NCBI GenBank assembly: GCA_020440605.1
Contig: JAGRNT010000003.1
Coordinates: 90,801 to 154,800 of the forward strand
DNA from: a bacterium
Lineage (GTDB): Bacteria > 4484-113 > JAFGCY01
Length of the DNA stretch: 64,000 nucleotides
Direction of reading: 5' to 3'
Each line of letters opens with the position of its first letter. Within the stretch, counting starts at the first letter, position 1. Below, piece after piece: positions 50,777 to 54,019 of this stretch. The notes below the pieces were generated by a model. The model did not search any database. It was not told the origin of the DNA and saw nothing but the letters and a program-made list of their open reading frames with translations. A program made the position numbers and the translations under genes.

Positions 50777-52522
50777 ATGCTTCACAGACTGATCATCAGC
50801 ACAATCCTGTGCTGCCTTCTGCCGGCGGTGGTGTTTGCCAACGGCTACGACACCTACAGTGCGCCGATTGCCTGGAGCCCGGACAGCAGCGAGCTGTGCG
50901 TGATCCAGGGCTGCGGCTGGCCGCAGCCGCAGATCGCCAGCCAGGCCAGTGTGCAGATCTACGATGAATACGGCCGCATCCAGTACGACCTTGGCAGCTG
51001 GGATGCGGGCTCACCCAGCTACAGTCCGGACGGGAAGTATCTTGCTGTGATTGCCAACGGCCAGGCCCAGCTCTTCATCCGGGATGGTTATGAAGCGCTG
51101 GATCCGGTGGATCTGGAAGGCAGTGGTCTGGACCTGGCATTCGTGGGCCGCCCCGATGAGTACGAACTGGCCTACAGTGTCGGGCCGCGCTTCTACGGTG
51201 CCAGTCTGGTGATCCAGCAGCCGGAGGGTGGCAACGAGACGGAGCTGCCGAAGCCGCTGCCGGGTGACAGTGCGATCAGCCTCAGGCAGTGCAGTGCCGA
51301 CTGGCGCATGGCCTTCCTGCTGCAGAGCACGGATCCCGGCGCTCCGGCCTATGAGAGGGTGTACGGTTTTGACGACGACGGCACGCCCCATCAGCTCACC
51401 CGGCCCCAGCTCAGGCCGGATGACTACCACGAAAGCAACATCTGCTTCATGCCCGATGGCAGCCTGCTGTTCCAGCGTGGCGGCTGGGGCGACTGGCACA
51501 TCTTCCGGCTTGATCCTTCCACGGATCGCGAGACCCTGCTCGTCCCGGATGCGCAGCAGCCCAGTGTCAGCGGGGATGGCCGCCTGATTGCCTTCACGCG
51601 GCGCAGCTATGCTGACAAGCAGAAGGTGGAATATGACTGGGAGATCCCGCCGGGGGTCTGGGTCCGCGATCTGGCAACGGACCAGGAATGGCGCATCAGT
51701 GACAACGAGAATGAGGCTGAGCACCCGGTGCTATCGCCTGATGGGCGCAGGCTGGCCTGGCTGCAGAACATGGAAGGCGAGCCGCGGCTGATGGTTCGCA
51801 GCGTGATCGGTTTCACCGGTGTGCTCGGGCATCCAGACAGCCCGTCGCATGATGAAGGCGCGGAGGAATATGTCCCGCAGATGGATGAGCCGCTGATCGA
51901 AGGCGCCTATGACGATGAACTGGGCGAAATTGACAGCACGGCTGAACCGCTCTCCCCTAAGGCCATGGAGATCAGCTACGTGAAGTTCGAGTGCACGAAT
52001 GGCGACATCATCTTCGCCGTGCACCACGAGTGGAACCCACTGGCGGCGGAACGCTTCCTGACTCTTGTCAACAGTGGCTACTACGATGGCGCGCCCTGGT
52101 TCCGCGTGATCGACGGCTTCGTGGCCCAGTGCGGGATCAGTGCTGATCCGCGCCTGAACAGGGAGTGGGATGAGGCGACCTTCCCGGATGAGGAGGTGCT
52201 GGTTGGCAACACGCGCGGGATGGTGGCCTTCGGCAAGACCGGTGATCCGGACTCGCGCACCACGCACATCTACATCAACTATGGTGACAACTCGCGCCTC
52301 GATGAGAAGGGCTTCAGCGCCTTTGCCGAGGTCTGGCAGGGCATGGATGTGGCCGACGGACTGTTCCGCTGCGAGTACAACGACCAGGAAGGCCTGGCCG
52401 CCGAAGGTGGGCTGGCACTGTTCAGGGAGATGTTCCCCGAGGCGGACTACATCCGCATGGCGACGGTGCTCGGCGGGGATCCGCCGGCATGGCATCCTGA
52501 GGGAGATGCCGCCGAGGAGTAG
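50777..52522 (+). CDS. Secreted TolB/PD40-like propeller fused to a cyclophilin-type peptidyl-prolyl isomerase
   Basis: IAWSPDS, PSYSPDGK, PSVSGDGR, PVLSPDGR; then WFRVIDGFVAQCG...NTRGMVAFG...DSRTTHIYINYGDNSRLD...FAEVWQGMDV. TAGAAT 6 nt upstream. Confidence 0.88.
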   Translation: MLHRLIISTILCCLLPAVVFANGYDTYSAPIAWSPDSSELCVIQGCGWPQPQIASQASVQIYDEYGRIQYDLGSWDAGSPSYSPDGKYLAVIANGQAQLFIRDGYEALDPVDLEGSGLDLAFVGRPDEYELAYSVGPRFYGASLVIQQPEGGNETELPKPLPGDSAISLRQCSADWRMAFLLQSTDPGAPAYERVYGFDDDGTPHQLTRPQLRPDDYHESNICFMPDGSLLFQRGGWGDWHIFRLDPSTDRETLLVPDAQQPSVSGDGRLIAFTRRSYADKQKVEYDWEIPPGVWVRDLATDQEWRISDNENEAEHPVLSPDGRRLAWLQNMEGEPRLMVRSVIGFTGVLGHPDSPSHDEGAEEYVPQMDEPLIEGAYDDELGEIDSTAEPLSPKAMEISYVKFECTNGDIIFAVHHEWNPLAAERFLTLVNSGYYDGAPWFRVIDGFVAQCGISADPRLNREWDEATFPDEEVLVGNTRGMVAFGKTGDPDSRTTHIYINYGDNSRLDEKGFSAFAEVWQGMDVADGLFRCEYNDQEGLAAEGGLALFREMFPEADYIRMATVLGGDPPAWHPEGDAAEE

Positions 52523-52660
52523 AAATTGAGGTTTATCCATAACAGATGTTATGTGTAATTCCCAAAAAATCACCCTGAGCAGGGATCCTGCCTGCTTGCC
52601 GCCTGAACAGCACTCATTGTATAATTTCCGACACCTATTTAGGAATCAGCGGAGCATCTG

Positions 52661-53353
52661 ATGAGGCAAGTGATCTTTGCCGCGTTGATCGCGGCGGCAC
52701 TGACGGTATTTGCAGGGGGCAATTCCACGGCCTGGGCGGCCTGTGGTTGCAAGGACAAGTGCGGGTGCTCCCAGAAGGCTGACTGCGGCTGCAAGGACAA
52801 ATGCGGCTGTGAGAAACCCAAGTGCAACAAGTGCGAAAGCAAATGCGGTTGCGAAAAGCCCAAGTGCAACAAGTGTGAGAGCAAGTGCGGCTGCGAGAAG
52901 CCGAAGTGTGGCTGCTCCAAGCCCAGCTGCGGTTGTGAGAAGCCGAAGTGCGGATGCTCCAACGGCTGCGACTGCTGCGTGGAGAAGGTCCCGCAGAATC
53001 ACCACCCCTATGAGTGCATGTTCCGTGGCAGCAGCATGGTCTGCGATACCGGCTGCTGCGGTGGCCCGGTCTGCGTACCGCAGTGCCAGGTCTGCACCAC
53101 CACCTGCACCAAGCATGAATGCAGCGACGGCTGCGGCTGCACCCAGGTGAGCTGGGAAAGCCACACCACCTGCAGCGCTCCGGTGCGCCCGCGCACCATC
53201 CCCTGGTGGTTCAACATCGAAGCCGGCAGCGGCAACATCTACCTCGAGGGTGATGAGAAGTGGGAAGGTTCCACCGAAGAGGCTGGTGATGAGATGGCCA
53301 GCGCCGAGGTGAAGACGGAAAAGACTGAAAGCACTGAGTCCAGCGAAGCTTAA
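52661..53353 (+). CDS. Secreted Cys-rich metallothionein-like protein 1
   Basis: Signal peptide, KCGCEKP/KCNKCES repeats, further Cys-rich domain, acidic tail; TATAAT at 52620-52625 and GGAG SD. Confidence 0.8.
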   Translation: MRQVIFAALIAAALTVFAGGNSTAWAACGCKDKCGCSQKADCGCKDKCGCEKPKCNKCESKCGCEKPKCNKCESKCGCEKPKCGCSKPSCGCEKPKCGCSNGCDCCVEKVPQNHHPYECMFRGSSMVCDTGCCGGPVCVPQCQVCTTTCTKHECSDGCGCTQVSWESHTTCSAPVRPRTIPWWFNIEAGSGNIYLEGDEKWEGSTEEAGDEMASAEVKTEKTESTESSEA

Positions 53354-53431
53354 GCCTGGCACGCCGGAACTCGAAATAGTACTCAGGCAGAAACCAAACA
53401 TACAGACGGAGAAATCCGGGAGGGTTAGAAG

Positions 53432-53953
53432 ATGAAGAAGTACGTGATCAGCAGCTTCCTGGCAGTGATGGCGGTGTTCGCCCTGCTGGGTTCTGCTTCC
53501 GCCGCCACCATCGGCAATTCGGTCAATGAGGCCGTCGCTGCCGTCAACATGCAGATCGACACCATCAGTGTCGAGGTCGCCCACTGCGGCAAGTGCGGCA
53601 TGGGTGAAGCCCATGCCGAGAAGCCGATGACCGCGCATGCTGACAACTGCGGCTGTGGCTGCAAGAGCAAGTGCGGCTGCAGCAAGCCGAAGTGTGGTTG
53701 CTCCAAGCCCAAGTGCGGCTGTGAGAAGCCGAAGTGCGGTTGCTCCAAGCCCAAGTGCGGCTGCGAAAAGCCGAAGTGTGGCTGCTCCAAGCCCAAGTGC
53801 GGCTGCGAGAAGCCGAAGTGTGGTTGTGAGAAGAAGTGCGGCTGCAAGGACCCCTGCGAGTGCTGCCCGAAGAAGGTGGAGAACTACCCCGATGCCAACC
53901 GTGGTGCCGAGGGTGAGTGGGCCCGTGATGGCCTGAGCCGCCAGCGCGCCTGA
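53432..53953 (+). CDS. Secreted Cys-rich metallothionein-like protein 2
   Basis: Signal ending ASA; seven KPKCGC[SE] heptads flanked by KSKCGCS and KKCGCKD; GGGAGG SD. Confidence 0.82.
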   Translation: MKKYVISSFLAVMAVFALLGSASAATIGNSVNEAVAAVNMQIDTISVEVAHCGKCGMGEAHAEKPMTAHADNCGCGCKSKCGCSKPKCGCSKPKCGCEKPKCGCSKPKCGCEKPKCGCSKPKCGCEKPKCGCEKKCGCKDPCECCPKKVENYPDANRGAEGEWARDGLSRQRA

Positions 53954-53984
53954 TCCGCGCATCTGGTTGCTGATGAAGTAACTG

Positions 53985-54019
53985 AAGGCGGCTGGGGATT
54001 CCCCGGCCGCCTTTTACTT
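53985..54019 (+). terminator. Rho-independent terminator after the Cys-rich pair
   Basis: AAGGCGGCTGGGG-ATT-CCCCGGCCGCCTT followed by TTACTT. Confidence 0.75.

Follow-up and report, generated by a model that had tools for sequence, protein, structure and literature searches.

What is the role of two adjacent genes whose products carry export signals and consist in large part of short repeats of cysteine and lysine? The question is raised by a locus within a 64,000-nucleotide stretch of contig JAGRNT010000003.1 (positions 90,801 to 154,800; assembly GCA_020440605.1), hereafter the window, which originates from an uncultured bacterium of activated sludge. The genes, here designated A and B, are predicted to encode two paralogous Sec-exported proteins of one bicistronic operon, and the pair appears to constitute an undescribed protein family restricted to a single bacterial family. 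Regarding function, the products are tentatively read as extracytoplasmic, metallothionein-like proteins that would bind metals through cysteine thiolates.

Two exported repeat proteins encoded by one operon

The locus comprises the following features, with positions counted in the window.

52596-52625 (+), promoter-like site, TTGCCG (-35), 18-nt spacer and TATAAT (-10), 10/12 matches
52626-52660 (+), 5' leader with the ribosome-binding site GGAG (52651-52654) and the nearly invariant stretch TTTCCGAYACCTATTAGGAAYCAGCGGAGCA
52661-53353 (+), gene A, open reading frame (ORF) of 230 amino acids (aa)
52661-52738 (+), Sec signal peptide of gene A, residues 1-26, cleavage after AWA (MRQVIFAALIAAALTVFAGGNSTAWA/A), kept in 22 family members
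52739-52978 (+), Cys/Lys array of gene A, residues 27-106 (80 residues), 31% Cys, 22.5% Lys, about nine heptads, closing with CDCC
52979-53251 (+), Cys-rich C-terminal domain of gene A, about 90 residues, HHPYE...CDTGCC...CxxCxTxC...CGC...RPRTIPWWFN..G.GNIYLE
53252-53353 (+), acidic Glu/Ser/Thr-rich tail of gene A and stop codon, variable in length and acidic in most orthologs
53354-53431 (+), A-B spacer of 78 nt with the ribosome-binding site GGGAGGG (53418-53424)
53432-53953 (+), gene B, ORF of 173 aa
53432-53503 (+), Sec signal peptide of gene B, residues 1-24, cleavage after ASA (MKKYVISSFLAVMAVFALLGSASA/A)
53504-53644 (+), N-terminal module and His/Met-containing linker of gene B, module ..AVAAVNMQIDTISVEVAHCGKCG, also read as ..AVNMQIDTISVEVAHCGKCG
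53645-53863 (+), Cys/Lys array of gene B, residues 72-144 (73 residues), 31.5% Cys, 26% Lys, nine heptads
53864-53953 (+), conserved C-terminal tail of gene B and stop codon, CPKKVENYPDANRGAEGEWARDGLSRQRA
53987-54015 (+), intrinsic terminator with an 11-bp GC stem, GGCGGCUGGGG / CCCCGGCCGCC, followed by UUUU
52646-53962 (-), antisense stop-free ORF of 438 aa spanning genes A and B

The first-pass annotation of this DNA had described a tandem pair on the + strand with Sec signal peptides on both products, a 21-bp DNA repeat varied at third codon positions, a common closing motif C[DE]CC-x-[EK]KV, and one promoter and one terminator for both genes, and had named translation of the opposite strand as what would overturn this picture. 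The two ORFs were recovered at exactly the same coordinates, and each of the other features is borne out below. In the comparison with a same-genus ortholog (L014), gene A shows 18 differences (16 at third positions), which amount to 15 synonymous and 2 replacement codon changes, and the sense frame of gene B shows 16 synonymous and 4 replacement changes, whereas the antisense frame would have undergone 3 synonymous and 14 replacement changes. This pattern indicates that purifying selection is acting on the + frame of A and B; the antisense ORF was therefore rejected as a coding frame, its openness being a by-product of a sense frame rich in GC and in repeats.

Both products are predicted to be exported by classical Sec leaders, which were assigned by manual reading of the n-, h- and c-regions and agree with Sec transport and signal peptidase I (SPase I) cleavage: the n-region is basic and contains K/R, the hydrophobic core spans 15-17 residues, and an AxA site follows. 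The leaders are conserved in all orthologs of A and B. Neither leader (MRQVIF.. and MKKYVI..) contains a twin arginine, and no lipobox is consistent across the orthologs of the two genes; a lipoprotein reading of A (AWA-AC) was rejected because its orthologs read AWA/D or AYA/GD, placing D or GD ahead of the first Cys. The mature proteins would comprise 204 aa (A) and 149 aa (B), within a range of 15-21 kDa.

The heptads of both arrays have the form KPKCG[CK]x and those of gene B are arranged as a 42-bp super-repeat, with Tandem Repeats Finder reporting 21/42-bp periods at 52798-52957 and 53668-53845. Within each gene the nine heptads diverge mainly at synonymous third codon positions. Lys flanks Cys throughout, the net charges are +8 and +13, aromatic residues and His are absent from the arrays themselves (but not from the whole proteins), and the arrays end in CDCCVEKV and CECCPKKV, respectively.

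Beyond what the first-pass annotation had listed, the proteins contain conserved non-repeat modules, have further paralogs, and belong to a lineage in which DsbA, DsbB and VKOR were not detected (see below). Invariant residues of the A domain include P116, Y117, R176, P177 and PWWF at 181-184. This domain tolerates many Cys losses that are single and unpaired, while Cys25 and Cys68 tend toward joint loss (phi 0.60), a weak pairing signal that leaves metal and disulfide readings undecided. The tail of A is proline-rich rather than acidic in three divergent members. Regarding gene B, the N-terminal module is also found in a fourth paralog type (P0028), the C-terminal tail can still be made out in distant genera, where it reads CCPK..E[YF]PN....G.....G.SR..A., and the His/Met linker adjoining the array (for example HAAKADMKMDHG) is present in most, though not all, B forms of the window's genus (genus 1).

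The promoter-like site occurs only before A and the hairpin only after B, and the A-B spacer contains neither hairpin nor terminator (fold z -0.97), so that the pair would have one promoter and one terminator. The terminator fold reaches -43.1 kcal/mol (z -5.75), and 0/200 shuffles were as stable. When five orthologous upstream regions were aligned, the -10 box and the 5' leader were invariant and the -35 box was mostly kept; the near-invariance of TTTCCGAYACCTATTAGGAAYCAGCGGAGCA persists despite an identity of only about 70-80% among the ortholog A proteins. The promoter looks strong and constitutive and the operon is probably strongly expressed. About 45 bp upstream of the -35 box, where the DNA is AT-rich, lies a perfect inverted repeat, CATAAC-AGAT-GTTATG (52538-52553). 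Some orthologous loci keep part of it as AACAGATGTT, and it might serve as an operator or an UP-like element.

Distribution and repeat variation of the pair

The window belongs to a lineage of GTDB phylum 4484-113, which is known from activated sludge and bioreactors. Among 24 species genomes of this phylum, the A domain is single-copy in 10/10 genomes of the window's family (four genera) and was detected in 0/14 of the remaining species genomes. Gene B adjoins gene A in every family genome with a readable gene A flank. These genomes represent three of the four genera; in the fourth, the locus is short and limited by its contig, and it yielded nothing on B. A scan of 185,579 species genomes returned nine loci, all in this lineage and including the complete one-contig genome of 4.11 Mb (CP060262.1, obtained from the Shatin plant in Hong Kong), under records labelled 'UBP7', 'Planctomycetales bacterium' or 'bacterium'. 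Similarly, a word-indexed search of 5.8 billion proteins returned only 'hypothetical protein' entries of metagenome-assembled genomes, and a literature text search with the heptad strings gave no match. The A-domain profile matched 18 proteins among 1.8 billion representatives, 12 in the family and 6 being large repeat proteins; the two of these six that were scanned both carry HYR_4C repeats and were matched via one short motif.

That capacity might vary through repeat number had been suggested at the outset, and repeat number does vary, the B proteins of relatives being 173, 172, 171, 168, 159 or 155 aa long. One 13-residue super-repeat separates the 172-aa from the 159-aa form, and the A proteins next to these two forms are identical. 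Between genera the repeat flavour shifts jointly in A and B, with KPKCGC[ES] here, CNSCKPKCGSC in a second genus and CKPKC[DE]PC in a third; across genera the KPKC core and two Cys per approximately seven residues persist, with CxC spacing here and CxxC or CxxxC spacing in the sister genera. Exact DNA identity between arrays extends up to 29-30 bp, which is enough for occasional recombination and assembly breaks. A 126-aa protein on a 3.8-kb metagenome contig (P0005) is an in-frame fusion of the A leader and an array identical to that of the window with the B tail of another species (..SRQKA), and may be a recombinant lacking the A domain and the B N-terminal module, or else an assembly collapse or chimera across the repeats.

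Metal binding weighed against other functions

The first-pass annotation had offered exported metal-binding or biomineralisation proteins and disulfide-crosslinked envelope or coat polymers as alternatives, between which the evidence below draws no sharp line. On the metal-binding reading, the KPKC-based heptad arrays, with two close cysteines per heptad, would be the working parts of A and B. The arrays would remain largely reduced outside the cytoplasm, and their Lys-flanked vicinal dithiols would serve as polyvalent thiolate ligands for soft metals, possibly Cu(I), Zn(II) or Cd(II), with a capacity that would scale with repeat number. The non-repeat modules (the WWFN domain of A, the N-terminal module and tail of B) might position or dock the arrays, and A and B would thus represent a periplasmic or envelope counterpart of metallothionein.

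The designation metallothionein-like, as given in the first-pass annotation, stands as regards array composition. With 31% Cys in CxC motifs, richness in Lys, and neither aromatic residues nor His, the arrays agree with the metallothionein definition, which supports a role in metal binding. The designation does not extend to family membership, size or location, since no match to metallothionein families was obtained, and the mature proteins of 204 and 149 aa with Sec leaders differ from the small (<10 kDa), cytosolic metallothioneins. Scans of A and B returned nothing at E <= 0.1 in Pfam and nothing at E <= 1 in NCBIfam, and PDB chains searched by sequence gave nothing at E <= 10; together with PHROGs, these searches were empty for A, B and the paralogs, so that A and B fall outside every named metallothionein, Csp and chlamydial Omc family. 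A RING domain, the only PDB profile match (E 0.15), was set aside. AlphaFold2 predictions reached a pLDDT of 43.5 for full-length A and of 63 for the A domain alone, with only one long beta-hairpin confident and no helices past the leader, A and B being predicted non-helical or disordered. A Foldseek search against the PDB gave nothing at E < 0.5, only pore-forming-toxin hairpins.

The A domain has in common with HYR_4C (PF23237), a domain of about 73 residues with four Cys from large Bacteroidota surface proteins, the motif I-x-W-x-[FY]-N-(D)-G-x-G-N. The hhalign alignment covers 20 columns only (49% probability), hmmscan of the A domain made no HYR_4C call in Pfam, the cysteine patterns differ, and the matches of the A profile to HYR_4C proteins arise from many tandem repeats adding up. 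Homology was set aside, the likeness being probably one at the level of the motif.

Among known systems, metallothioneins include the bacterial SmtA/BmtA, MymT and PmtA as well as long modular forms, such as the Cd/Cu metallothioneins of Tetrahymena and the repeat-expanded Cu-thioneins of fungi. The arrays of A and B likewise contain about 30% Cys in CxC/CxxC motifs in modular, variable repeats, but the two proteins differ in having a Sec signal, a mature size of 15-21 kDa, additional conserved non-repeat domains and no adjacent metal-sensing regulator. The first-pass annotation had contrasted them with the characterised bacterial metallothioneins (SmtA, MymT), described there as small and cytoplasmic. 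PmtA has been detected on the surface of Pseudomonas aeruginosa, yet lacks a signal peptide (PMC11237414), and a claim that all Cys-rich metal stores of bacteria are cytoplasmic needs qualifying because Csp1, which uses cysteine thiolates to store many Cu(I) ions, is exported by Tat (PMC7558416). Csp1 of methanotrophs is a pre-folded, Cys-lined four-helix bundle, whereas A and B have Sec leaders with no RR, no predicted bundle and tandem heptads without a Pfam match.

Among crosslinking proteins, the SPRR, late cornified envelope and keratin-associated proteins of the vertebrate epidermis act as crosslinkers and quenchers of reactive oxygen species (ROS), and evolve rapidly in repeat number. 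They likewise consist of short tandem repeats rich in Pro, Lys, Cys and Glu, and the sister-genus CKPKCEPC resembles SPRR-type repeats; these epidermal proteins are, however, cytosolic proteins of eukaryotes that transglutaminase crosslinks when the cell dies, and the likeness is one of convergent composition without homology. The chlamydial cysteine-rich outer-membrane complex consists of OmcA and OmcB with MOMP, and its function is tied to thiol/disulfide state. OmcA and OmcB, which are Cys-rich proteins of the envelope, resemble A and B in being exported and in having adjacent genes, in a bacterium of the wider PVC-like radiation. OmcA is, however, a lipoprotein, whereas A and B have no consistent lipobox, about twice the Cys density, cysteines in simple repeats and no homology, Chlam_OMP3 and Chlam_OMP6 giving no match in the Pfam scan. 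Chlamydiae are described in one source as encoding DsbA/DsbB-type enzymes (PMC5193440), and none was detectable in the A-B lineage.

In the A-B lineage, profiles of DsbB (PF02600), VKOR (PF07884) and DsbA (PF01323) gave no match in 10/10 family genomes, including the one-contig genome of 4.1 Mb, and Thioredoxin_4 (PF13462), searched for in the window's own genome only, gave none there; controls yielded the expected matches. The haem-copper oxidase (COX1) is present in 10/10 family genomes, and the lineage would thus be an aerobic diderm without a known disulfide-forming pathway. In a crude census without a positive control, 294 of 343 predicted exported proteins contain Cys and 46% of these 294 have an even number; this lack of an even-Cys bias fits an envelope with no reliance on structural disulfides. 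The undetected Dsb and VKOR enzymes and the parity census together argue that the envelope does not depend on enzyme-made disulfides. Peptidoglycan synthesis genes (penicillin-binding proteins and Mur ligases) are present in 10/10 family genomes, and for this reason the pair was rejected as a replacement for a missing peptidoglycan wall.

Several observations would be expected if A and B bound metals. The undetected DsbA, DsbB and VKOR and the absent even-Cys bias fit exported thiols of this kind, and cysteine spacing that is free across genera (CxC, CxxC or CxxxC) while density and the KPKC core are kept would be expected of ligand clusters. Repeat-number polymorphism between near-identical strains (172 versus 159 aa) and the apparent purifying selection on the + frame also count in favour, as does the His/Met linker of most B proteins of genus 1, which we take to resemble periplasmic Cu-binding motifs. 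Weighing against metal binding are the constitutive-looking promoter, with its perfect, conserved -10 box and no MerR-type spacer of 19-20 nt; the absence from the window of metal-sensing regulators, metal transporters and other metal genes; and the lack of a metallothionein match by sequence (Pfam, NCBIfam, PDB) or by fold (Foldseek). Neighbours differ between genera and the A-B pair is therefore the conserved unit, being the only conserved element of the locus. Because the organisms respire oxygen, spontaneous oxidation of exported thiols is conceivable, and the occurrence of four paralogs with distinct non-repeat domains and co-changing flavours suggests a common structure over a simple sponge. 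The parity test is crude, moreover, and undetected Dsb homologs are compatible with an unrecognised oxidase, Helicobacter being known to use atypical disulfide enzymes (PMC4597128).

These objections lead to the possibility, which we consider somewhat unlikely but serious, that the arrays oxidise after export, spontaneously or via an unrecognised oxidase, and form a disulfide-crosslinked envelope scaffold. In that case A, B and the paralogs, perhaps together with outer-membrane proteins, would be interlinked into a tough envelope or matrix layer, by analogy with the chlamydial complex, spore-coat crosslinkers and keratin-associated or SPRR proteins. At least four paralogs with common repeats but different conserved docking-like modules would suit such a layer, and a flavour that changes jointly in A and B per genus is what would be expected of partners pairing in register. 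The status of gene A as a single-copy core gene with B adjacent wherever the flank is readable, the strong, conserved and constitutive-looking promoter without a metal regulator in the window, and the joint loss tendency of Cys25 and Cys68 point the same way, as do the exported cyclophilin-propeller fusion upstream in genus 1 and close relatives, the transglutaminase-core protein in another genus, and a DUF3187 outer-membrane barrel of the same genome with an N-terminal CGC-rich segment (see below). A scaffold is harder to reconcile with the undetected DsbA, DsbB and VKOR, with an exported proteome lacking an even-Cys bias, with the tolerance of many single unpaired Cys losses in the A domain and with neighbours that are not conserved between genera, and the peptidoglycan synthesis genes make a replacement sacculus unneeded.

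The same dithiols could instead act in redox chemistry, as an extracytoplasmic thiol-disulfide buffer or catalyst for a Dsb-less envelope, whether a redox buffer, a sink for ROS or Cu(II), or an isomerase resembling protein disulfide isomerase (PDI), the thiol pKa of the CGC/CxxC dithiols being lowered by flanking lysines; this we regard as rather improbable. The chemistry itself is known, as a bare Cys-Gly-Cys peptide has an E0' of -0.167 V, near that of PDI, and catalyses disulfide formation and isomerisation, and short CXC peptides rescue pdi1-deleted yeast (bioRxiv 10.64898/2026.01.27.701630). The Lys flanks throughout the arrays and an aerobic lineage without detected DsbA, DsbB or VKOR would also fit. 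The exported proteome without an even-Cys bias would, however, offer few disulfide-needing clients, no recycling reductase or oxidase is encoded nearby, sister genera have CxxxC/CxxC rather than CGC spacing, and catalysis needs no nine or more tandem sites per protein. That the poly-CGC/CxxC arrays are themselves the envelope thiol-disulfide machinery, a natural, genetically encoded 'peptide PDI' or redox buffer built from minimal CxC active sites in tandem, and take the place of extracytoplasmic thioredoxin-fold enzymes, seems slightly less probable still. Exported, Cys-rich arrays with net charges of +8 and +13 also recall secreted cationic antimicrobial or toxin-like peptides of the defensin or bacteriocin style, but this is very unlikely, given products that are large (15-21 kDa mature) with acidic tails, a locus without immunity, processing or dedicated export genes, and a gene A that is a single-copy core gene in every family genome at a conserved site within the genus, unlike accessory bacteriocin loci.

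If metal binding, which remains our preferred reading, is true, A and B would be natural Sec-exported metallothionein-like proteins whose capacity is set by a strain-variable repeat number, for which we know of no described bacterial case. This would bear on the buffering of Cu, Zn or Cd in the bacterial envelope and would be of practical interest as the hosts inhabit activated sludge, where metals are sequestered. Should the proteins instead form crosslinks or serve in redox chemistry, they would illustrate how exports so rich in Cys are dealt with by an aerobic diderm that has no known disulfide-forming enzyme. Either way, the pair is a conserved, lineage-defining module of an almost unstudied candidate phylum.

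Neighbouring genes, further paralogs and other occurrences of the repeats

Directly upstream of A, at 50777-52522 (+) of the window, a gene encodes an exported protein in which a PD40/Tricorn-like beta-propeller is fused to a cyclophilin-type prolyl isomerase; this protein may help to fold the Pro-containing repeats or may be unrelated. This fusion, a DUF4332 protein and a Zn-ribbon membrane protein are syntenic with the pair in genus 1 and its close relatives only, while in another genus the transglutaminase-core protein is encoded upstream. Conserved partner genes were ruled out, as the neighbours of matching size in a distant genus show no homology to them.

The window's own genome encodes at least two further paralogs besides A and B. 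A third type, 'C' (contig C22, 98528-99328 (+); ortholog L007, 8001-8774), has a Sec leader, about ten perfect CGCEKPK heptads and then, after a conserved module in the middle (YGDGLAFSL...CCPSEKFCLIDNCTECY), another CGC array that ends in GKCGSH; it has no Pfam match and its neighbours give no functional clue. A fragment of a fourth Cys/Lys-array type is located at a contig end (C28, 99908-100213 (-)) and resembles the C-terminus of P0028, which has a B-like N-terminal module and an array ending in CGCGKCG; the coincidence of this array with a contig break suggests that arrays fragment short-read assemblies. The DUF3187 outer-membrane beta-barrel (C24, 38885-40210 (-)) carries an acidic CGC-rich N-terminal segment, ACGCSDCGCETQSSCGCDSCSDCGC, and might pair with the basic CGC arrays at the outer membrane via disulfide or metal bridges.

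The same heptads also occur without a signal peptide on a phage-like contig (L028, 10001-10651), in a structural-region protein that starts with CNCKPKCRCEEPKCGCEKPKCGCGKP; DHFR, HNH and a giant LPD38 protein are encoded on the same contig. With a GC content of 44% versus 62% and no match to the genome, a link to a phage infecting this host was rejected, and the heptads of the contig are attributed to convergence.

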